Source: a virus (Duplodnaviria; Caudoviricetes). Taken from it: 35,784 nucleotides of DNA. A program made the translations under genes and the position numbers. Location of the stretch: the IMG/VR virus record IMGVR_UViG_3300016476_000957, positions 1 through 35,784 of that record; one strand, given 5' to 3'. Below, piece after piece: positions 2,892 to 34,068 of the stretch (position 1 is its first letter; each line of letters opens with the position of its first letter). Under the pieces are notes generated by a model that was given only the letters and a program-made list of their open reading frames with translations, searched no databases and was not told where the DNA came from.

Positions 2892-4331
2892 ATGGCAACA
2901 TTTATCCAAGAAGTATTAGGACTTCTCTCAAAAAAGAAAACAGTAAAGACTCTTGTCCCTAAGAGAGACTACTTTCAGTTAGGAAGACAAAGAGATAGCA
3001 CGTTAGTAACTGGTGGTTACAATCCAGAGATGGATGCTTTAGGTATTAAAGCAGAAGATTTGATGTGTGTAATGCTATCAAATACTTTGCAAGGTGGTGT
3101 AAACTATGTACCTATTTTCTCCCCGGCTATCCCTGGAACTAATTGTGCAAAAGGACCTTTGGTAAATTCTAAGATTTATCAAAATCCTACTACAGGTACT
3201 ATTGAACTTTTAGATGATCTCAAAGTAGGTTTTGGTTTGTTTGATAATGCTGGTTCATTAGGAGCAGCTGGTCAAGTACTTACTTCAACTGCAACAGGTG
3301 TACAATGGACTTCAAATGGTTCTGGTACAGTTAATTCTGTTGATGCTTCCGGAGGTTCAACTGGTTTAACTTTCTCAGGTGGACCGATCACAACAAGTGG
3401 TGTTCTTACTTTAGGAGGTACTCTTGGAGTAGCAAATGGAGGTACAGGTTTAACTGCAACCCCATCTGCTAATCAGCTTCTTTTAGGAAATGGTTCAGGT
3501 TATAGCTTATATACTTTAATTGGAGGTCCCGGTATTTCTTACAATACAAGTGGCACAAACCTATTTATCAATAACACAGCTCCAGATCAAATTGTAACAC
3601 TTACTGCAGGTGCTAACGTAACAGTAACAGGATCTTATCCTAACTTTACTATTGCTGCTACAGGTGGATCAGGATCCGGTACTGTAACAAGTGTTGACGT
3701 TAATGGTGGTACTACAGGTATGACCTTTACAGGTTCTCCTATTACAACCTCAGGTACAATTACTATGGGTGGTACTTTAGGTTATGCTAATGGTGGTACT
3801 GGAGTAGCTGCAGCTGGTTTAGCTCAATTACAAGATCATTTAGGTTTAAAAGAATCTTATGTTAAAGTTAGATGGACTGGAACAAGTGCACCTTATGTAC
3901 TGTTTCCTTTTAATAATCCTTTAGAAATACCTTTTGATTCTACTTATTTTGCATTCACCAAAGGAACAGCGGGTGGTATTAACCTATCTCAAAGCTCAAC
4001 AACTTGCAGATTCCAACCAGCAGATAGTGGTATATATAGAGTTTTCTTATCATTAAATCTTGATAGACAGTATAATCCAAATGTTGAAAAGGTTGAAGCT
4101 TGGTTATTTGATAATACTATAGGGCTGAGAGTTTTGCAATTGATTTCAGCTTCACCCGCATCTGTAACAAGTACTATTCAAATTTATCAAGGTGAAAGTG
4201 ACTTTACATTAACTTCTGGACATGATTATTCAATTATTGTAACAGTTACCGGCAATGCCGGAGGATCTCCAGCATTACCTGTACTTAATTATGCTGCTAC
4301 TGAAGCATCTTTTAGATCAATTAGTATTTAA
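2892..4331 (+). CDS. Gly/Thr/Ser-rich tail fibre/virion appendage protein
   Basis: 479 aa with two copies of a GTVxSV...GxTFxGxPITTSGxxTxGGTLxxANGGTG module, a GQVLTSTATGVQW motif and a C-terminal beta-sandwich-like head. Confidence 0.7.
   Translation: MATFIQEVLGLLSKKKTVKTLVPKRDYFQLGRQRDSTLVTGGYNPEMDALGIKAEDLMCVMLSNTLQGGVNYVPIFSPAIPGTNCAKGPLVNSKIYQNPTTGTIELLDDLKVGFGLFDNAGSLGAAGQVLTSTATGVQWTSNGSGTVNSVDASGGSTGLTFSGGPITTSGVLTLGGTLGVANGGTGLTATPSANQLLLGNGSGYSLYTLIGGPGISYNTSGTNLFINNTAPDQIVTLTAGANVTVTGSYPNFTIAATGGSGSGTVTSVDVNGGTTGMTFTGSPITTSGTITMGGTLGYANGGTGVAAAGLAQLQDHLGLKESYVKVRWTGTSAPYVLFPFNNPLEIPFDSTYFAFTKGTAGGINLSQSSTTCRFQPADSGIYRVFLSLNLDRQYNPNVEKVEAWLFDNTIGLRVLQLISASPASVTSTIQIYQGESDFTLTSGHDYSIIVTVTGNAGGSPALPVLNYAATEASFRSISI
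3318..3803 (+). repeat. Internal 44-aa (132-nt) diverged repeat, copies at 3318-3449 and 3672-3803
   Basis: GSGTVNSVDASGGSTGLTFSGGPITTSGVLTLGGTLGVANGGTG versus GSGTVTSVDVNGGTTGMTFTGSPITTSGTITMGGTLGYANGGTG. Confidence 0.85.
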
Positions 4332-6307: not shown

Positions 6308-7141
6308 TTAAAATATATATCTGATGGTTTTTTCATCAAAATATTTCTTGTATATACCTTTAAACTTGTCTATTAGTTTGTATTTATAGCTCAAAGGATA
6401 CCTCATTATTAGCTCACGGTTCTTAATTTCTGAGCTATATTTCATTAACTCTTGAGCTGCATCTGATGAACGAGCCATCTGTCTAGCATGATTTGTAAGT
6501 GCAATTACTTCACACTTATTTTCTCCTGCATGTTCTTTTACTTCTTTGAAAAGTTCCTCATAAGGTTCTTCCCAACCGGGGTAAAATATAACAGGACTGT
6601 AATTACAATGTACTTCCCATCCAAGATCTTTTAACCTATTGATATCCAGTATTCTATCTGAAATCTTTTGCATTTTAGGTTCCAGTATATCGGAATATAC
6701 TTGGGGCATTAGGCTAACTCTTACCCTAGGTTTTTTATTAAAGTGTCTAACATCAAGCTTTAATAAACTTGGGTACTTAGTAGCCATTGTTGTGTTTAAT
6801 CTTGGGTGATCATCATACCTTTTAAGATAATCAATCAGGGGTTCAGGTAAATGTTTCTGCATTAATACTAAATCTGTATTGCATGCTATATCTACCATAG
6901 TATATATAGGGTCTTGTTGATCAGGAACTTTGATATAATCTTTTTCCCATTCAACTACAGACTGGAATATGTCATCAACATTTGTGTTTACAAAGACTCT
7001 GTCTCCATTATATCTGGACATATAACAGTAAGTGCTAACACATCCACCAAAACAACCATATATTAGGTTAGGTGCAATGCAGTTAGCACTATTGTTATTA
7101 TCCTTAGTATCAAGAGTCTTAGTCTTTTGGACTTTAATCAC
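6308..7141 (-). CDS. Spore photoproduct lyase-family radical SAM protein
   Basis: NSANCIAPNLIYGCFGGCVSTYCYMSR, PDQQDP, DIACNTD, ATKY, RVRVSLMPQ, LEPK, GWEVHCNYSPVI and RY match the SPL-family pattern. Start placed at the GTG at 7141 because 7134-7313 is a separate gene. Confidence 0.8.
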   Translation of the reverse strand: MIKVQKTKTLDTKDNNNSANCIAPNLIYGCFGGCVSTYCYMSRYNGDRVFVNTNVDDIFQSVVEWEKDYIKVPDQQDPIYTMVDIACNTDLVLMQKHLPEPLIDYLKRYDDHPRLNTTMATKYPSLLKLDVRHFNKKPRVRVSLMPQVYSDILEPKMQKISDRILDINRLKDLGWEVHCNYSPVIFYPGWEEPYEELFKEVKEHAGENKCEVIALTNHARQMARSSDAAQELMKYSSEIKNRELIMRYPLSYKYKLIDKFKGIYKKYFDEKTIRYIF

Positions 7142-7313
7142 CTGAGATAATTTCCTGAATATCATTAATAGCAAGTTGACACTCATGATTTTCTGAGCCA
7201 CCTTCTTCTATTTCTGATAGAGCTAAATAATAGACATCCTTTATCTCTTCCTTTTTACTAGGATATTCTAGGATGCATTGTTGAACAAATTTAAATAAAT
7301 CTGATTTTACCAT
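7134..7313 (-). CDS. 59-aa acidic hypothetical protein
   Basis: Not in the ORF track. MVKSDLFKFVQQCILEYPSKKEEIKDVYYLALSEIEEGGSENHECQLAINDIQEIISGD*; overlaps both neighbours by a few nt. Confidence 0.7.
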   Translation of the reverse strand: MVKSDLFKFVQQCILEYPSKKEEIKDVYYLALSEIEEGGSENHECQLAINDIQEIISGD

Positions 7314-15828: not shown

Positions 15829-16959
15829 CTAAAACGGTAAATAACTGTGAGTATCTATAATTTTGACACCTTTATCATTTAACTTGAGCTTCTCATAGAA
15901 ATGAGGCTTTAACTTAATGTCTTGAAGTTTTAGATCAAATACTGATTCATCATTGAAACCCATAGAATGAGTAAGATAATCTAGCATTTTAATAGATACT
16001 ATTTTAAATGCAAATTCAGTTAAAGCATTTTCACTAATTAAATTCTTGAGCAATCTGTCAAAGTAATGAACATTATAATTACCATAAGGAATAAATTCAT
16101 TGAATCTTTTTCTTAAGCTTTTAATGTTGATACTGGTCCAGTTTGTACTAAAATCTTTTAGTATAGCATGATTCATATAAAAGATCAAAGCAATGATATC
16201 AAATGACTTTTCAACGTTGCAGTTAGCCATCATCTCTAAAGCCAAATTTACATTCTCTTTATCTTTACTATTAATCATTGATAATAGACTATCATATTCT
16301 TTTTCACCAAGAATTACAGAATCCTCAACAGTAACACCAGATAAAGCTGTGTCATATATTAAGTTATCAGAACTCAATATTGCTTTTAAAGTAGATTCAT
16401 CAGATATATAAAGAACTTTATCCTCTATCCAGGGCATTTCTCTGCTTACATCATAGGCTGAAGTATTATGAAAATTCCAAGCCATATTACTTCTAATAGA
16501 TATTGCAACCTTATCTTCTAAATCTACTTGATCTTGAATACTTTTAATAGCATCTTCAACACTCTTTGTATCCCAATGTAGTGATGTACTCTTGTAATAC
16601 TCAATAAACTTATCAAACATTATAGATTCACTCCACTTTCTATCAAGCAGTGAATTGACATAGTCTTCAGAGATAATTTTGTAATCCGCAGTGTCTGATG
16701 TTCTAACTACAGATAAATTATACTTCTCTTTTAATACATCCACCTTTTGCCTAGGCAATGATAACTTAGGATATCTGAAGATAGTTTTGTCTTGCAGTGA
16801 TACTTTTTTAATATCAAGACTTTTAACTCTGAAGTTAATACCATGATCAGAATTCCTTTTGAAAATAATTACCGGCTTTTCTTTTGTTACATGCTTGACA
16901 TATATTTTATGCGTTGCTGCAACAGCTTTTATCTCTAATTGTAATTCAAATGATTTCAT
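15829..16959 (-). CDS. Hypothetical protein (BRCT-like N-terminal segment, helical C-terminus), AAA/vWA operon partner
   Basis: 376 aa; TIFRYPKLSLPRQKV...ADYKII resembles the corresponding segment of the upstream 341-aa protein. Confidence 0.8.
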   Translation of the reverse strand: MKSFELQLEIKAVAATHKIYVKHVTKEKPVIIFKRNSDHGINFRVKSLDIKKVSLQDKTIFRYPKLSLPRQKVDVLKEKYNLSVVRTSDTADYKIISEDYVNSLLDRKWSESIMFDKFIEYYKSTSLHWDTKSVEDAIKSIQDQVDLEDKVAISIRSNMAWNFHNTSAYDVSREMPWIEDKVLYISDESTLKAILSSDNLIYDTALSGVTVEDSVILGEKEYDSLLSMINSKDKENVNLALEMMANCNVEKSFDIIALIFYMNHAILKDFSTNWTSINIKSLRKRFNEFIPYGNYNVHYFDRLLKNLISENALTEFAFKIVSIKMLDYLTHSMGFNDESVFDLKLQDIKLKPHFYEKLKLNDKGVKIIDTHSYLPF

Positions 16960-17981
16960 TTTAAATATTGCTGGTATTTAGGTTTTACTGAAACATTAAA
17001 TACATACAGATCTCTATTGTAAATTTTTATTTCCTTTCTACAGATTGGTTCTAAAAATTTAAATGCAGTACTATCCAGTAAATTATCTTGTTCTAGCTTT
17101 AAGATAAGATCTTGAGCATCCAATCTTTCATAACTATACTTTTTACTAGAAAGCCAAAACTGTACGTCTTTATTTCTATTGAACTTATATAAATAAGTAT
17201 CTATTTTTTTGAACAAATGCCACAGAAGATGATGGTTTTTAGTTAGATTAATTGTTGGTAATAACTTACTTGCAATTTCAAGATCATCATCACTATAGCT
17301 GCCCATCATATTTGATATTGTCTGAACTAGATCTTCTGTTAGATCTTGAATTGTTGCGGATGAATGCATGAAAGTATCAACATCAACCACTCCATTTAAA
17401 GATCCTATTTCTAATGCATAAGCAATATTCATTGCCATTCCTGTAATCATCCATGAATCATAAAGATTGGTTGTGTTACAATTCCAGCTGTTCACATGCT
17501 TACTCCATTTGTCATCATAAATACAAGACATACCACTTGAATCTACAATTGGAAGTCTACCTGATGTATCTTCAATTACATCATAATTCCAAAGCTTTGC
17601 CAAGAGCAATGTTGATTTAATAGTCTCACCATTATTAAGACTTTCATTTATATCATTATGAGATATAATGAAATCTGCTTTTTCATAGTCACCTACTATT
17701 ACAATATTATGCTCTCTTGCAGCAGCTTTTATTCTATCTAGAGATACCGGACATTTAGGCAAGACAAAAGCTCTTTTATAATTCTTCCAGTTTGTACTGA
17801 GAGTTTCTTTTTTAAGAGTAGTTTCTATCTTACTATATAAGTCAGGATCCTGTACACATACTACTGATTCAACAGTATCTAAATTGGAAGAGGAAAGTAC
17901 CCCATATACAGGGGCACTTCCTAATCCAAAGTGTTGTAATACTGTTTGATCCAAATCTTGGTAAACAGATTTACTTGCCAT
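16956..17981 (-). CDS. Hypothetical protein (BRCT-like segment), AAA/vWA operon partner
   Basis: 341 aa; AFVLPKCPVSLDRIK...ADFIIS; TAATG-coupled to the ATPase. Confidence 0.8.
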   Translation of the reverse strand: MASKSVYQDLDQTVLQHFGLGSAPVYGVLSSSNLDTVESVVCVQDPDLYSKIETTLKKETLSTNWKNYKRAFVLPKCPVSLDRIKAAAREHNIVIVGDYEKADFIISHNDINESLNNGETIKSTLLLAKLWNYDVIEDTSGRLPIVDSSGMSCIYDDKWSKHVNSWNCNTTNLYDSWMITGMAMNIAYALEIGSLNGVVDVDTFMHSSATIQDLTEDLVQTISNMMGSYSDDDLEIASKLLPTINLTKNHHLLWHLFKKIDTYLYKFNRNKDVQFWLSSKKYSYERLDAQDLILKLEQDNLLDSTAFKFLEPICRKEIKIYNRDLYVFNVSVKPKYQQYLK

Positions 17982-19252
17982 TACTTCATTGTCATTTTGA
18001 TGATTTCTGGATTCATCATCATTTTGTTAAACTTCTGCTTATTCCCATTAAAGATTGTACGTACAACCAAATACTTCAAATCATTGGTAAAATAATCTTT
18101 AGTAGACAGAGAGATCAAACGATCTGTAATCTTTTGGCTGATTGTATTATCCTTTGCATAAACAACTGCATAGTTAGCTAAACGTGTTGCAAGTGTAGAA
18201 GCAATGTCTGCTCTGAAGTTATCACCACTACCTACACAAGACTTAAGTTCACCCAAGATGTATGACTCATTATCATGTGTCAAAAGATCTTTAGGAGTAA
18301 CTAGCTTATCCAGTTTGTTATTGATAAATACAGTAAACATACTTGCAAATGCATCACCTACAGAACCTTCACCAATCATTTGAATCATGCTTAAGTTATC
18401 CTCAAATGATTCAAAGCTAGAAATAGCATTGAAGAAAGTTGTGATAGATCTTGCATTAGTTTCTGTTGTAACTAATTCAGGATGCATTAACAAGAAGTTA
18501 ATACAACGTGAGTCAATTCCTGCTTCTTCTGCCCAACGTGCCCATACATTAATGTCAAACTTTAAGTTTGCAGTAATATAACGTGTCTTTTGTGCAGCAT
18601 CCACTGAATTAACCATGTAGTCACCATTGTCTGGATTTGATGTCAAGATGATGTGCCAGTCTTTTGGAAGAGACCATGAGATATAAGTTTGACGGTCAAT
18701 TAATTCCATGACAGCCTGAATAAATCTTACATCAGCACGGTTCCAGTCATCTAGCAATAGAATGCCTCCTTCTTTTTTATCTGCAATCCATTCCGGTGCA
18801 CAATAAGACATTCTGTTCTTACCTGTCATCTTATATCCATTCTTTAGATACTCAGATACAGCAAGTTCATCAACCCAGATTCCAACTTTCTTAACAACAG
18901 TACCATTCATATTAGCAAGGTCTGTAGAAGCAGCAGCTCTTTGAGCAGCAGTATAATTAATTGTGTCTTGAGAATTTGCTGAAACAGCTTGTTCCTTATA
19001 CATCTGAAACTGACGTACAGGGAAACCAACTAAATCACCAAGCTCCTCAATCTGTGCTAAGTTTAACTTTACAAAATTTAAATTATGTTCTTTTGCAAGT
19101 TCTACTACAGTAGACGTTTTACCAATGCCAGATTCACCCATTACTTCAATAGCAACTGGTGGTTTACCTTGTGCTTGTAAGAATCTGTTGTTGTTAATAA
19201 TGTGATTTACGAAACCTTTAAGGTCATCAATGTTTAAATTTACTTGTGCCAT
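17981..19252 (-). CDS. MoxR/dynein-related AAA+ ATPase
   Basis: Walker A GESGIGKT, EELGDLVGFP, PEW, Walker B LLLDDWNRA, sensor-1 ILTSNP, DAAQKTR, NARS. Confidence 0.9.
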   Translation of the reverse strand: MAQVNLNIDDLKGFVNHIINNNRFLQAQGKPPVAIEVMGESGIGKTSTVVELAKEHNLNFVKLNLAQIEELGDLVGFPVRQFQMYKEQAVSANSQDTINYTAAQRAAASTDLANMNGTVVKKVGIWVDELAVSEYLKNGYKMTGKNRMSYCAPEWIADKKEGGILLLDDWNRADVRFIQAVMELIDRQTYISWSLPKDWHIILTSNPDNGDYMVNSVDAAQKTRYITANLKFDINVWARWAEEAGIDSRCINFLLMHPELVTTETNARSITTFFNAISSFESFEDNLSMIQMIGEGSVGDAFASMFTVFINNKLDKLVTPKDLLTHDNESYILGELKSCVGSGDNFRADIASTLATRLANYAVVYAKDNTISQKITDRLISLSTKDYFTNDLKYLVVRTIFNGNKQKFNKMMMNPEIIKMTMK

Positions 19253-19258
19253 AATTGA

Positions 19259-20419
19259 TTAATTTAATTGAATTGTTTTACCAGGTAAATAATCTACCAT
19301 TCTTGATTTGCTACTAAGAACCCATAAAGCATTCTTAGGACAACCTACTGGAGCAGAGCATTCACCATCTGTTAAATATATAAGAGCAGTATACCGCCCG
19401 TGTTCATTATAGTGATTTATAACTGGTTGAAAATCAGTACCTCCACGGCCTTTGATATTCCAGTCTTTTTTAGGATTAAAATCTTCTATAGAATTAATCT
19501 GAGTATCACACTGTGCAACTGTAATTTTATGTCCAGTCTTATGCATGTGATTCAACTCATTCATAAATTCTATCAGTTCTGCACTACTTACAGAACCTGA
19601 AGTATCAACACCTACAAGAATATGATTCTTGTGTTTAATCTTTAAGCCAGGGTTCTCCGTATATCTTTTGTTATACTTTCTCCTTAACTTCTTTGTATAG
19701 ACAATAGATGAATTACCAACAAATCTTCTTAGATAGGCTTTCCAATCAAACTTTGGTGGTTCAATTGTAAATAGTCTTCTAAAAATCTCTGCCAGTTCTC
19801 CAGGTAAATGTCCTTGTCTTTTCTCTGTTTGTTCAGCTGCTTCTTTAAGTTGGTGATCAATTTGCTTTTCAATCAACTTCTTTTCAGCTTCAGATAAATC
19901 ATCAAACTCTTGCCATGTCTTGTGATCATAAATACTTTCACCATCCATTTGACTAAGAATGTTTTCCAATGTCTCCGAGGTCCCATTATCACGGGCCTGC
20001 TGTAACAAATCATAGTATGTTTTTGTACCCGCCTTCTTAGGAAGATTCAATTCTGGAAATGTGTCCAGTGTTAAACCTCCTTCAGGCAGATACTGCTCAT
20101 CAATATATTGATTGATCTCAAGATCAGCTGCAATATTGAATAATCTGTGGTCTGGATACATATCCTTAACAGTCAAATGACCAAAGGCTATGTGAAGAAG
20201 CTCATGCTTCAAGAGACCAATTGTGTGTTCTTCTGATAACGGATTAACAAAATCAGGATTTATAGAAAGCTGAACACCAATACCATGTTTACTAACACCG
20301 GCTGTTGGTATATCTTTTCTATATTTTTTGTTAAGACCAATCAAGAACAGTCCATAAAAGGGTTCACTAAATATCAATAGCTTAGAAGCTTTTGATACTT
20401 TGTCAATTACTGCTTGCAT
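19259..20419 (-). CDS. DUF2201-type protein: HEXXH metallopeptidase-like domain plus vWA domain
   Basis: PFYG, PTAGV, HELLH, NIAADLEINQ; MIDAS DTSGS, GRGGTDFQP, YLTDG. Confidence 0.9.
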   Translation of the reverse strand: MQAVIDKVSKASKLLIFSEPFYGLFLIGLNKKYRKDIPTAGVSKHGIGVQLSINPDFVNPLSEEHTIGLLKHELLHIAFGHLTVKDMYPDHRLFNIAADLEINQYIDEQYLPEGGLTLDTFPELNLPKKAGTKTYYDLLQQARDNGTSETLENILSQMDGESIYDHKTWQEFDDLSEAEKKLIEKQIDHQLKEAAEQTEKRQGHLPGELAEIFRRLFTIEPPKFDWKAYLRRFVGNSSIVYTKKLRRKYNKRYTENPGLKIKHKNHILVGVDTSGSVSSAELIEFMNELNHMHKTGHKITVAQCDTQINSIEDFNPKKDWNIKGRGGTDFQPVINHYNEHGRYTALIYLTDGECSAPVGCPKNALWVLSSKSRMVDYLPGKTIQLN

Positions 20420-30171: not shown

Positions 30172-30372
30172 TTAATTTAAGTTTTCTTGTTTTACTTCCT
30201 TATAGCTAATCCAAAATCCAATAGCTACTAATATATTCATTCCAAATGAAGCAATTACTTCATGGATATCTTTATAAACATTTACAGATAGATGAACATG
30301 GCCCACCATCCAAAATGGTATAGATAAGTTTTGACTTATCCAAACTACGGTATACTTGATAAAGTGTTTCAT
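30172..30372 (-). CDS. Small membrane-associated hypothetical protein
   Basis: 66 aa with two hydrophobic segments; begins 2 nt after tRNA-Thr. Confidence 0.7.
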   Translation of the reverse strand: MKHFIKYTVVWISQNLSIPFWMVGHVHLSVNVYKDIHEVIASFGMNILVAIGFWISYKEVKQENLN

Positions 30373-30374
30373 AG

Positions 30375-30447
30375 AGCCACCTATAGGACTTGAACCTACA
30401 ACCTACTGATTACAAATCAGTTGCTCTACCAATTGAGCTAAGATGGC
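30375..30447 (-). tRNA. tRNA-Thr(UGU)
   Basis: Acceptor GCCATCT/AGGTGGC, D-arm TAGCTCAATTGGTAGAGC, anticodon CTGA-TT-TGT-AA-TCAG, T-loop GGTTCAAGTCC; no encoded CCA. Confidence 0.95.
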
Positions 30448-31192: not shown

Positions 31193-32286
31193 ACTGTTAC
31201 ATTTACTATTTTATCTTGATCTAAACCTTCTAGTGCTTTGTTAACCCATTTCTCATCAATGGTATCTTTATAGCATAGAATATGACATGTTGCTACCTGA
31301 GTTGGATTTAGTCTTAATAGACGGCCAATTCTTTGAGCAGACTTTCTTTCATTGCCATAGGCATGCATAATAATACCAACTTGTAAATTAGGTACAGTAA
31401 CACCTTCATTTAATTGCATAACACAAGATAGTTTTTGTATTCTGCCATCCTTAAATAACTGCAAATTCTCATCAGATTTTGGATTATTGGAGTGATAGCT
31501 GTGTTTACAAATTCTATCAGCTTGTTCTTGAGTATTAGCAAATACAATACATTTACTATTTACCTGGTCTAAAATACTTTTAAGATAAATCTCTTTAGTA
31601 TTATAATCCATCATTGCCCGCATTCTAAGAATAGAAAAGAATTGAACTTGTTTTGGTGTATTGGCTTCTGCTAACTGTCTTGTTAGATAGTCATAGTCAT
31701 TCTTTTCAGAAGTATACCATACTCCACCATTTTTATTCTTTTTCTTAAATGCCGGTAACTTACTCAATGCAATCTTGTGAACAAAAATTCTGTAATCATT
31801 TAGAATCTTTTGATCAGTAGCCTGATCTACAGAAAACTTAAATACTATAGGACAGTATTTATATACCATTCTATATTTCTCACTTCCTTTTCTAACTGGT
31901 GGTGTACCAGTCAAACCTAAGATCTTTCCTTTGAACTTCTCTAGAAAGATTTCATGAGTATCCAAAAGACTATGACACTCATCTAGATAGACAATGTCAT
32001 AGTCAGTTGGATCTTGTTTGTTTATAGAAAGATATGTGCTAAATACTATATGATTACTTAACTTTTCTAGATTCATTTTCTTTAGTTCATCTTCCCAAGA
32101 GTCTTTAACAGACAATTTGGGTATTACAACTAATACCTTTATGAGAGGGTGATAGTTTTTCATTAGATGTTTTATGGCAATTCTTGTCTTACCTACACCC
32201 ATTGAAATACCTACACCACATCTTTGATACTTTTCTATCTCTTTTAATGCTTGTTCTTGAACTGAATCTTTTTTAGTTATCATCAA
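31189..32286 (-). CDS. Superfamily 2 DExH helicase (ResIII/UvsW-like)
   Basis: Q-motif VQEQA, MGVGKT, LDECH, GLTGTP, LNEGVTVP, QRIGRLLR. Confidence 0.9.
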   Translation of the reverse strand: MMITKKDSVQEQALKEIEKYQRCGVGISMGVGKTRIAIKHLMKNYHPLIKVLVVIPKLSVKDSWEDELKKMNLEKLSNHIVFSTYLSINKQDPTDYDIVYLDECHSLLDTHEIFLEKFKGKILGLTGTPPVRKGSEKYRMVYKYCPIVFKFSVDQATDQKILNDYRIFVHKIALSKLPAFKKKNKNGGVWYTSEKNDYDYLTRQLAEANTPKQVQFFSILRMRAMMDYNTKEIYLKSILDQVNSKCIVFANTQEQADRICKHSYHSNNPKSDENLQLFKDGRIQKLSCVMQLNEGVTVPNLQVGIIMHAYGNERKSAQRIGRLLRLNPTQVATCHILCYKDTIDEKWVNKALEGLDQDKIVNVTV

Positions 32287-32854
32287 ATAAATCTTTTAGC
32301 TTTTCTTTTTCTACAACCTCTTTCAAGGTTTCAGAATACTTTTTTCCTGTGGAAGCATATGAAGCATCTAATGCATCATAATAATCTTGCTCAGAATCAA
32401 GTTTACTCAAATACCGGCATTGATAGAAAGCATAGTCATATACACTTTCTTGCCAATTATTATAGTATGCATGATTAAGTTGTGTTCCTTTAGCAGTTCT
32501 AATTCTTCTGTTGGCCAACTTCATCCCAAATAAGTTATGATTCTCTTTAAATACAAGGGAAGTCCAGTGACCAGTTTCTACAATAGATTGTGCTAATACA
32601 ATGTGAGGATATTTAATATCCAACTCTTTAATCATATCTACTAAATCATTTTTAGAGAAGGGTTGGTTTTCATCTCTTAATACATGAATGCCACCTTCTA
32701 ACTCAATAACTTGTGCTTCTGCAATATTTTTTCCTACTACAATACCACCTAACAGTGTAGATGCTACAATAATAAAACAAATACTTGCAAATACTATCAT
32801 TTCCCTGTAGATAGGTTCAAACAATAGCTTTTGTTTGTTGTACTTATAAAACAT
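32273..32854 (-). CDS. GH73/glucosaminidase-like peptidoglycan hydrolase with N-terminal TM anchor
   Basis: VLAQSIVETG (catalytic Glu), NHNLFGMK, WQESVYDY, YAS...Y; TM MIVFASICFIIVASTLLGGIVVG. Confidence 0.8.
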   Translation of the reverse strand: MFYKYNKQKLLFEPIYREMIVFASICFIIVASTLLGGIVVGKNIAEAQVIELEGGIHVLRDENQPFSKNDLVDMIKELDIKYPHIVLAQSIVETGHWTSLVFKENHNLFGMKLANRRIRTAKGTQLNHAYYNNWQESVYDYAFYQCRYLSKLDSEQDYYDALDASYASTGKKYSETLKEVVEKEKLKDLFDDN

Positions 32855-32870
32855 AATTATTAGGTTTTAG

Positions 32871-32893
32871 GCTTATAACAGAATATTATAAGC
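32871..32893. other. Intergenic hairpin
   Basis: GCTTATAA-N7-TTATAAGC, a perfect 8-bp stem. Confidence 0.45.
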
Positions 32894-32907
32894 AATGAGA
32901 CTTATAA

Positions 32908-33113
32908 AAGAATAAGAAACTCTCTTGCATGCTAACCATGCTTTTAGATTTGATTGGACATAGTTTACTGTCCACCTGTTGTAGTGCACTACAGAGCAGG
33001 GTCCATCACAGTTCACTTTGGGTCATGTAACTCATTTGGGTAGCTAATCCCAAGAGCCAAAGTTTCTTTCAACGGTGCTAATCCGTCCTCTGTAAGAGAG
33101 TTTTCTTATTCTT
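32908..33113 (-). ncRNA. Putative ~206-nt multibranched structured RNA (unassigned)
   Basis: A ~22-bp closing stem, AAGAATAAGAAAACTCTCTTACA / TGCAAGAGAGTTTCTTATTCTT, encloses four hairpins. No long ORF; starts 2 nt after tRNA-Leu. Confidence 0.7.
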
Positions 33114-33115
33114 AG

Positions 33116-33200
33116 TAGCCGGGATGGGATTTGAACCCACACGGGTATTACTACCCAAGGGATTTTAAGTCCCTCATGTCTACCGTTCCATCACCCAGCT
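33116..33200 (-). tRNA. tRNA-Leu(UAA)
   Basis: Acceptor AGCTGGG/CCCGGCT, anticodon AGGGA-CT-TAA-AA-TCCCT, long variable arm GGGTA-GTAA-TACCC, T-arm GTGGGTTCAAATCCCAT. Confidence 0.93.
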
Positions 33201-33420
33201 AAATTTCCCCACCTTGAGATTACAGGTGAGTAGTTATTTCGGTTTTTTGTTCTGTTCCAAAAACCTGTGAGGCATCCCTCATGAAAACAGTCAACACTAC
33301 TGGGAGGAGTTGTGCGGTTCTCCTTTATCCCACGAAGTCTCACTCTGGCCGTAGACTTTCTGCCAACCTATTTTTAAATGAGTCTTAGGTCAAAGACTGC
33401 TGAGCATCTCTCACTCATTG
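33201..33420 (-). ncRNA. Putative ~220-nt structured RNA with a pseudoknot (unassigned)
   Basis: GC-enriched spacer between two tRNAs, almost fully tiled by hairpins; H-type pseudoknot candidate at 33364-33398. Confidence 0.6.
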
Positions 33421-33492
33421 TTGCGGGTGTGGGAGTTGAACCCACTACCATATGATTATGAGTCATATATGCATCCGTTACACCTACCCGCT
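33421..33492 (-). tRNA. tRNA with CAU anticodon (Met/fMet/Ile2), atypical
   Basis: Acceptor GCGGGT/ACCCGC with an A1-A72 mismatch, anticodon TATGA-CT-CAT-AA-TCATA, T-arm GTGGGTTCAACTCCCAC; A at position 8. Confidence 0.8.
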
Positions 33493-33496
33493 ATAT

Positions 33497-33620
33497 TGCT
33501 TGTCTTTCCAAGCTGTCACGATTTTGCTAGTGTCAGACAATTGTTTTGCCTCTCATTACCTCACTAGTTTTGGGGAGTGTCTACCTGATTACCCACATCC
33601 ATTCCGCACCTGCAGGGGAA
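33497..33620 (-). ncRNA. Possible structured leader RNA
   Basis: CTAGTG/CACTAG stem and a 3' hairpin GCTTG-GAAAGA-CAAGC; non-coding and GC-enriched. Confidence 0.35.
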
Positions 33621-33627
33621 AATATCA

Positions 33628-34068
33628 TTAATAGATTAAACAAAGTTTATCTTCAACTTCAAAAATTTCTTCAGCAGTTAAACCTTCACAATAAAATCTA
33701 CCAAATTTAAACTTAAGCTTAATCTGACTATAAGAAAAGCCGGGTTTTTTAATAAATCCTTGAAACTTTTCATCTAACCAAATAATAAATAAAGGATTAG
33801 ATACAGCTAAGCCATAATGACCTTCTTCAAGATAGTCTTTATACTTGTTGTTAAAGTCTTCAACAGTCATAGTATTATTACGGAGTTTATCCTCCATATC
33901 TAAACTTTGATCAGGACTGTACAATTTAGAACATTTACCACAAATATGAGCTTCACCATCTTCAGACCATGTATTAACATATTCACCCTCTTTTATAAAG
34001 GGTTTGCATGTATCACAACTACATGCATTATGAGTAAAGCAATTGGGACAAATAAAACTTCCTTTCAT
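33628..34068 (-). CDS. Two-domain hypothetical protein with a Cys-rich Zn-binding N-terminus
   Basis: CPNCFTHNACSCDTC...CGKC, followed by a domain with YLEEGHYGL and QIKLKF. Confidence 0.75.
   Translation of the reverse strand: MKGSFICPNCFTHNACSCDTCKPFIKEGEYVNTWSEDGEAHICGKCSKLYSPDQSLDMEDKLRNNTMTVEDFNNKYKDYLEEGHYGLAVSNPLFIIWLDEKFQGFIKKPGFSYSQIKLKFKFGRFYCEGLTAEEIFEVEDKLCLIY

Follow-up and report, generated by a model that had tools for sequence, protein, structure and literature searches.

A phage tRNA island carrying three separately conserved, exchangeable RNA families

The alternating order of tRNAs and non-coding RNAs in the phage sequence analysed here is one arrangement of exchangeable units, each composed of a tRNA and the RNA behind it. 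The conservation of these RNAs, the covariation within them, their held distances from the tRNAs and their modular exchange are observed directly. We consider it rather probable that the stretch as a whole is a phage tRNA island with three separately conserved RNA genes (RNA A, RNA B and RNA C), which occur in other orders and beside other tRNAs elsewhere and which are likely freed by host enzymes.

A gene-free stretch in a freshwater phage contig

The window, i.e. the whole 35,784-nt stretch of DNA that was analysed, is a 35.8-kb phage contig with a G+C content of 33%, in which replication genes and an endolysin-like gene are present. The sequencing runs that contain it are mostly freshwater or aquatic metagenomes. 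The host probably belongs to the Bacteroidota, for which one copy of RNA B in a Bacteroidia bin is the sole direct hint. This copy is one of five matches in bacterial genomes, four of which are due to chance; the fifth, on a 4.4-kb contig (L214), is a real B start following a tRNA. A single copy is too little to fix the host. A metagenome scan for the exact tRNA-Met/B junction returned two matches, both of them chance.

Two open reading frames on the minus strand (32273–32854 and 33628–34068) are separated by 773 nt without a credible gene, and the longest stop-free run on the minus strand of this stretch measures 58 codons. On the same strand, the elements follow one another in the order RNA A, hairpin H, tRNA(CAU), RNA B, tRNA-Leu(UAA) and RNA C (Table 1). 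Their G+C fraction of 0.41–0.44 is higher than the 0.33 of the whole window. Spacers read from the sequence measure 5 nt between hairpin H and tRNA-Met, 3 nt between the tRNA-Met discriminator and the first helix of B, 7 nt between the last helix of B and tRNA-Leu, and 2 nt between the tRNA-Leu discriminator and the closing helix of C. The roughly 750-nt non-coding layout with alternating tRNAs that an earlier note on this DNA had described is thus borne out, with 773 nt, a 220-nt B, a 206-nt C and gaps of 2–7 nt. The structured leader reported in the same note does contain an RNA, but it resolves into two modules, RNA A and the separately spread hairpin H.

Table 1. Elements of the island in window coordinates
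Element	Position	Strand	Description
RNA A, ~104 nt	33520–33623	−	two covarying stems and an invariant 5′ hairpin; no Rfam family
Hairpin H, 22 nt	33498–33519	−	separately spread phage motif, 5 nt before tRNA(CAU)
tRNA(CAU), initiator-like	33421–33492	−	49 bits; weak D arm; CCA not encoded
RNA B, 220 nt with linkers	33201–33420 (helices 33417–33208)	−	no Rfam family
tRNA-Leu(UAA)	33116–33200 (start 33115/6)	−	53 bits; CCA not encoded
RNA C, 206 nt	32908–33113	−	closed multi-helix RNA with two palindromic loop tips
Freshwater-1 (RF02979) part of C	32949–33010	−	83.3 bits against a gathering score of 72; E 3.4e-18
A+U-rich hairpin	32871–32893	−	after RNA C, ahead of the endolysin-like gene; from folds

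Rfam matches in the stretch comprise both tRNAs and freshwater-1, which lies inside C. A hairpin similar to the A+U-rich one also comes after RNA C in the relative L219, as judged from its sequence by eye. Sigma-70-like promoter sites occur at chance level with none outstanding, and Bacteroidota-type −7 boxes number 27 on the minus strand against 23 on the plus strand, with one at 33709. Short open reading frames overlapping the island were rejected as a group, a 50-codon GTG frame among them, on account of the many 1–2-nt indels in the alignment.

Contigs of relatives (at least 85% alike) cover parts of A, B and C in four out of four RNA libraries, with little cover over the open reading frame upstream of the island. 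Such libraries can hold DNA, and their contigs reveal neither ends nor strand nor level, so that they hint weakly at expression. The upstream frame itself is shorter in L188–L190, L192 and L196–L198 and in runs X4 and X5 (joint at 33605–33898) and, as seen by eye, reads on in frame beyond the start of RNA A, into its 5′ half. The window's own upstream frame ends just before RNA A, unlike those of L188–L190, L192 and L196–L198.

Elsewhere in the window, the protein encoded at 6308–7201 (minus strand) matches the Pfam spore photoproduct lyase family PF20903 (E 4.5e-19). In the region 15829–20419 (minus strand), a gene for an ATPase has as neighbours a DUF2201 metallopeptidase/VWA-like gene and two open reading frames of 340–380 aa without a known family. 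A 479-aa open reading frame at 2892–4331 (plus strand), located where two gene directions meet, has no Pfam or PHROG match.

Structure and conservation of the RNAs

When single-sequence folds were compared with those of shuffled sequences, RNA C reached a z-score of −5.0, with values of +0.53 for A and −0.09 for B. As the single-sequence folds of A and B are no better than shuffles, the structure models of these two RNAs rest on homologues.

A search for RNA B with a 19-nt 5′ motif yielded at least 120 loci (about 170 estimated), and 94 distinct contexts among the matches listed. The search pattern demanded the two A's that precede the first helix and thereby favours short gaps between tRNA and B. 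The alignment comprises 57 copies of 205–228 nt that are less than 93% alike, longer forms and near-copies being left out, and its columns are on average 64% identical. In the model, which was drawn from the window copy and the alignments, three covarying pseudoknots follow one another after a 5′ hairpin. Next come two more stems and a 3′ hairpin, and the loop of this 3′ hairpin is invariant and shows complementarity to the 5′ hairpin. Across the 57 copies, 83% of cells pair, compared with 39–50% when the sequences are slid, and double changes occur in 43 of the 68 pairs. Each loop was additionally scored against its own target and against those of other copies. Cognate pairing won 0.96, 0.79 and 0.73 of the comparisons for the three pseudoknots, and controls scored 0.42 and 0.31. 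The putative end-to-end clasp never varies, so that it draws on complementarity rather than covariation. RNA B has no Rfam match in 16 loci at the gathering score, nor in the window at E up to 10.

Two further pairings in B were considered and dropped. A fourth pseudoknot scored 0.42 in the cognate test, at the level of the controls. A long-range pair that would connect a small loop with the 3′ linker has changed on both of its sides in 25 of the 57 copies, but takes essentially two forms, which one event could explain. Long forms of B (~260–295 nt; L053, L055, L058, L062, L067, L072, L077, L094 and L152) carry an extra domain inserted in the 3′ half. At one locus (L119, 1001–1220), only the first 20 nt of B are left, followed by tRNA-Leu and RNA C; this stub is a natural internal deletion.

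Judged by its sequence, RNA C represents the full-length form of freshwater-1, of which the Rfam model covers under a third. The 62-nt model RF02979 is matched in full (positions 1–62) inside RNA C, conservation spans ~200 nt, and a long closing helix has its arms at 32908–32929 and 33091–33113. Freshwater-1 reportedly stems from the GOLLD and ROOL paper PMC5737381, the main text of which does not carry its name. A 19-nt core located 48 viral loci of RNA C. Double changes are present in 28 of 47 predicted pairs (24 of the 32 distinct copies used). One hairpin tip is palindromic in all 32 copies, with its central four bases occurring in four forms, and a second tip is palindromic in 29 of the 32. 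Switching between palindromes in OLE and GOLLD loops has been put forward as evidence of cross-chain pairing (bioRxiv 2024.12.08.627333). By analogy with GOLLD and OLE, copies of RNA C probably join one another through their palindromic loops.

RNA A is represented by 22 genuine loci among 24 pattern matches. In 15 distinct copies, much of the alignment is invariant, 98% of cells are paired and double changes occur in 7 of 31 pairs, hairpin H included. A loop–loop pairing is predicted between the invariant 5′ hairpin and stem 2. Searches of Rfam gave no credible match for A in the window (E up to 10), in four loci at the gathering score or in three loci at E up to 1.

Hairpin H comes after RNA A in all 22 of its loci and is also spread separately, with ~470 stretches estimated in viral contigs. 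Its variable stem pairs are complementary in 101 of 104 contexts. H lies 3–9 nt ahead of a tRNA-shaped RNA in 27 of the 104 contexts compared with 13 of 416 controls; this position is thus enriched, but it applies to a minority of copies. The phage contigs that hold H (L271–L390) are of very different G+C content, and by the test used here, 77 of 104 copies do not directly precede a tRNA-shaped RNA. A loop of A (33581–33591, minus strand) and the 3′ loop of B (33215–33223, minus strand) start with the same six invariant or common bases; in both, the bases that come next have predicted partners in a 5′ hairpin loop. The shared start is possibly one recurring motif.

tRNA junctions and modular exchange

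Among the matches listed, the first helix of B begins exactly 3 nt after the discriminator of a tRNA or tRNA-shaped RNA in 75 of 94 contexts and 3–5 nt after it in 79; the other 15 have no T arm within 3–5 nt, and about six contexts are preceded by plain A+T-rich sequence. A stricter version of the T-arm test gives 41 positives among 2783 control positions. ARAGORN names a tRNA upstream of B in 47 of these 94 contexts, covering 12 types and one tRNA without an assigned type. Downstream, a tRNA follows in 50, a tRNA-like start in 16 and neither in 16 of the 82 contexts among the matches listed that have a located 3′ end and enough sequence. On a tree of B, the label of the upstream neighbour changes 29 times against a shuffled mean of 30.2, which suggests that tRNA partners were often swapped while the junction was held; recombination within B may blur this tree, and the label 'tRNA-like' includes some true tRNAs missed by ARAGORN. 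CAA is the commonest trailer between ordinary tRNAs too (73 of 156; gaps mostly 4–10 nt), so that B may simply be packed like any other gene of a cluster.

For RNA C, 45 of 48 loci have a tRNA named by ARAGORN whose end lies some 100 nt upstream of the core. Of 31 distinct contexts, 29 have an upstream tRNA and the other two a T loop at that place, and the upstream tRNAs are of six types (Leu-UAA 13, Glu 6, Tyr 4, Leu-UAG 4, Gly 1 and Ala 1). The check proposed in the earlier note, i.e. whether homologous RNAs adjoin tRNAs of varying identity in other phages, was run and came out in its favour, with 12 named types for B and six for C at a held distance. Downstream of C, a tRNA is found in only 10 of 31 contexts, with a tRNA-like start in two more, and ARAGORN detects one directly upstream of RNA A in only 3 of 22 loci. 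Punctuation by tRNAs therefore cannot give every end. The idea of ends defined by tRNAs holds for B, which is bounded on both sides here, but not for the 5′ end of A and the 3′ end of C, where there is no tRNA.

The tRNA(CAU) of the window was compared with the annotated T5 tRNAs for fMet, Met and Ile2. It has a 1–72 mismatch, and its acceptor pairs 2–7 and anticodon loop are the same as those of T5 tRNA-fMet. Initiator tRNAs are recognised by three G-C pairs in the anticodon stem. The stem of tRNA(CAU) is A+U-rich and does not have them, and neither does that of T5 tRNA-fMet.

Many neighbours resemble tRNAs in part only. Among 27 picked for inspection, most have a 7-pair acceptor stem and a T arm, and their bodies of 71–174 nt contain no regular anticodon arm, so that they cannot decode. 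In L219 and L220, whose endolysin-like gene is 81% identical, such a mimic sits directly before C in place of the window's tRNA-Leu. The junction preserves the shape that processing enzymes read, not the decoding function; that enzymes read it here we infer. If the mimics are processing handles, this would explain why phages retain tRNA-shaped genes that are unable to read codons. The tRNA-shaped RNAs form a large family with a common acceptor stem and T arm and freely variable bodies of 71–174 nt, with members in L049, L053, L059, L064, L074, L076, L109, L113, L115, L219 and others. At another place in the window, a tRNA-Thr (30374–30447, minus strand) stops 1–2 nt ahead of the start codon of the open reading frame 30172–30372 (minus strand), and processing would thus leave the mRNA of this frame nearly leaderless.

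A different explanation of the junction is that B (or C) is a cis-acting, self-cleaving or cleavage-directing RNA of a new fold, which makes the 3′ end of the upstream tRNA as proposed for theta ribozymes. Such an RNA could account for the 3-nt offset, for the invariant 5′ end and pseudoknot-rich fold of B, and for its travelling with the upstream tRNA, and theta ribozymes are described at phage tRNA 3′ ends with apparent Bacteroidota and Bacillota hosts (PMC10879173). Yet a trailer ribozyme would have no need of the tRNA or tRNA-like RNA that also stands at the 3′ end of B in 66 of 82 contexts, and the majority of the island tRNAs are not followed by an RNA of this sort. Rough descriptors, run with no positive control, detected the HDV-like nested double pseudoknot with a catalytic C in none of 57 copies of B, none of 24 copies of C and nowhere in the island, and a hammerhead core in 1 of the 57 B copies. 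We regard the cis-acting ribozyme as very unlikely. Just as slim are the chances of a more far-reaching proposal, according to which the 215-nt B, with its three pseudoknots clasped end to end, represents a novel ribozyme class and makes or guides the cut at the tRNA 3′ junction, the mimics are dedicated processing handles that release exchangeable ornate RNAs, and C forms RNA-only oligomers.

The fixed polycistronic cassette suggested in the earlier note is not found: among 211 other loci listed (flanks of 300–1500 nt), none holds A, B and C, and A and B never co-occur. B and C are found together in 9 of the 48 C loci, and A and C in 2. In contigs from three studies (X3, X4 and X5), position 33201 is joined to 33496, exactly without tRNA-Met and B. 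Among close relatives, tRNA-Met and B have thus been gained or lost as one precise unit of 294 nt, which ends in a short match common to both tRNA starts. Run X2 contains the full layout on two overlapping contigs with 2 differences in the island against 17 in the 511 nt upstream; the downstream gene is also nearly identical, so that the low divergence of the island is not evidence of selection.

Gain and loss of this kind could also be expected of modules that are near-neutral or selfish and that spread when tRNA genes recombine with one another, with the tight junction as a by-product of crossover. The RNAs are indeed optional in close relatives, the 294-nt unit ends in the match shared by the two tRNA starts, and one B stub exists (L119). 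Furthermore, of the 50 loci that carry the neighbouring endolysin-like gene, 48 are without the RNAs, C being present in 2 and A or B in none. The compensatory changes over many helices and pseudoknots, the invariant loops and the 64% identical columns speak otherwise, as compensatory changes and invariant loops in diverged copies need selection on the folded RNA. In addition, no transposase, reverse transcriptase or open frame lies inside the island. Spread as near-neutral or selfish modules thus appears improbable.

Proposed release and comparison with known systems

Based on the geometry of the junctions and on precedent, we think with good confidence that the RNAs are released by tRNA processing. 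Read-through transcription would make a single precursor, in which RNase P would cut at the 5′ ends of the tRNAs and so produce the 3′ ends of A plus H and of B. An RNase Z-type endonuclease would cut within the 2–3 nt that follow the discriminators of the CCA-less tRNAs and generate the 5′ ends of B and C. Any later cut would damage B, as its first helix begins just 3 nt after the discriminator. The 3′ end of C would not be set by a tRNA but made by termination or trimming at the U-rich closing helix. The freed RNAs probably act in trans as protein-free folded particles, C in the form of oligomers and B as a compact pseudoknotted fold clasped end to end. As a tentative best guess, they would serve during infection as a decoy or scaffold that engages RNA-binding proteins or nucleases of the host.

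Free RNAs would be unneeded if the elements acted in cis on the long transcript, by protection from exonucleases, antitermination or pacing of tRNA release. Tandem pseudoknots can block nucleases, hairpin H is short, widespread and sized like antitermination sites, and C lies just ahead of the endolysin-like gene both here and in L219/L220, all of which would suit this idea. It fits poorly with the free shuffling of order and neighbours and with the many copies of C that are located deep inside tRNA arrays with no adjacent gene; the closed ends and palindromic tips of C suit a discrete RNA better. Action in cis is thus unlikely in our view.

The proposed release by tRNA processing is reminiscent of mitochondrial tRNA punctuation, where RNase P and RNase Z cut out the tRNAs and thereby release the RNAs that lie between. 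In contrast, the products proposed here are small phage RNAs, and only some of their ends are defined by tRNAs. A relation to RNase P RNA or tmRNA is not apparent: neither the CR-I/CR-V motifs nor those of tmRNA occur in the 57 copies of B and the 24 of C, Rfam gives no match to either, ARAGORN reports no tmRNA, and the frame from the AUG of B varies from 6 to 52 codons. Theta (HDV-like) ribozymes are likewise described at phage tRNA 3′ ends (PMC10879173), whereas B and C are far longer and B is tRNA-bounded at its 3′ end as well.

GOLLD and ROOL are described as phage RNAs near tRNA islands that are rich in pseudoknots and kissing loops (PMC5737381; bioRxiv 2024.12.08.627333). RNA C resembles GOLLD, ROOL and OLE in that its self-complementary loops switch between palindromes. 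There is, however, no Rfam match to any of the three among the stretch and the homologue loci searched. At 104–220 nt, A, B and C are small compared with many GOLLD RNAs of more than 800 nt, and the oligomers of C are predicted. With respect to freshwater-1, RNA C contains the whole RF02979 model, but its conservation and covariation reach ~200 nt and include the closing helix.

A search of 50,697 annotated phage records gave tRNA matches only and no homologue of A, B or C. A word-based literature search turned up no description of A, B or full-length C; the candidate RNAs in the supplements of PMC5737381 or PMC10690425 may include A or B.

The closest parallels are the RNAs of the T4 and T5 tRNA clusters. 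T4 rnaC and rnaD (species 1 and 2) and T5 RNAI, RNAIII, RNAIV, RNA2H, RNAX and the tRNA-like RNA1/RNA2 are cluster RNAs that lie 0–6 nt from tRNAs or tRNA-like RNAs. In the T4 record, rnaD starts 1 nt after tRNA-Arg and rnaC 6 nt further on, and in the T5 record, RNAIII and RNAX adjoin tRNAs and RNAI adjoins the tRNA-like RNA1. According to the description in PMC2330249, the species I and II RNAs of T4 derive from the tRNA precursor. A, B and C are non-coding elements of the same T4/T5 kind, a few nucleotides from tRNA genes on the same strand. Whereas the earlier note had seen a candidate for an undescribed system, the arrangement as such is found in the T4 and T5 records, and C contains a family already in Rfam. 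The link to tRNAs is strong, and the layout is of a known kind rather than a fixed unit.

On the level of the individual RNAs, there is little similarity: profile searches of A, B and C against the T4/T5 regions gave a best E of 0.2 or worse, and the B model has no match in L217 and L218. The pseudoknot chain of B and the palindromic tips of C set them apart from the T4 and T5 RNAs as described, as does the swapping of modules among many tRNA types. New here are two RNA families missing from Rfam, the complete extent of another one, an exact junction that is independent of the tRNA partner, and a precise natural deletion. The stable RNAs of the T4 and T5 clusters are described as unexplained in function (PMC3014915, PMC9697503) and are still listed as puzzles; next to them now stand three natural families with tens to more than 100 variants, covariation-based models, predicted exact ends and a natural deletion variant.
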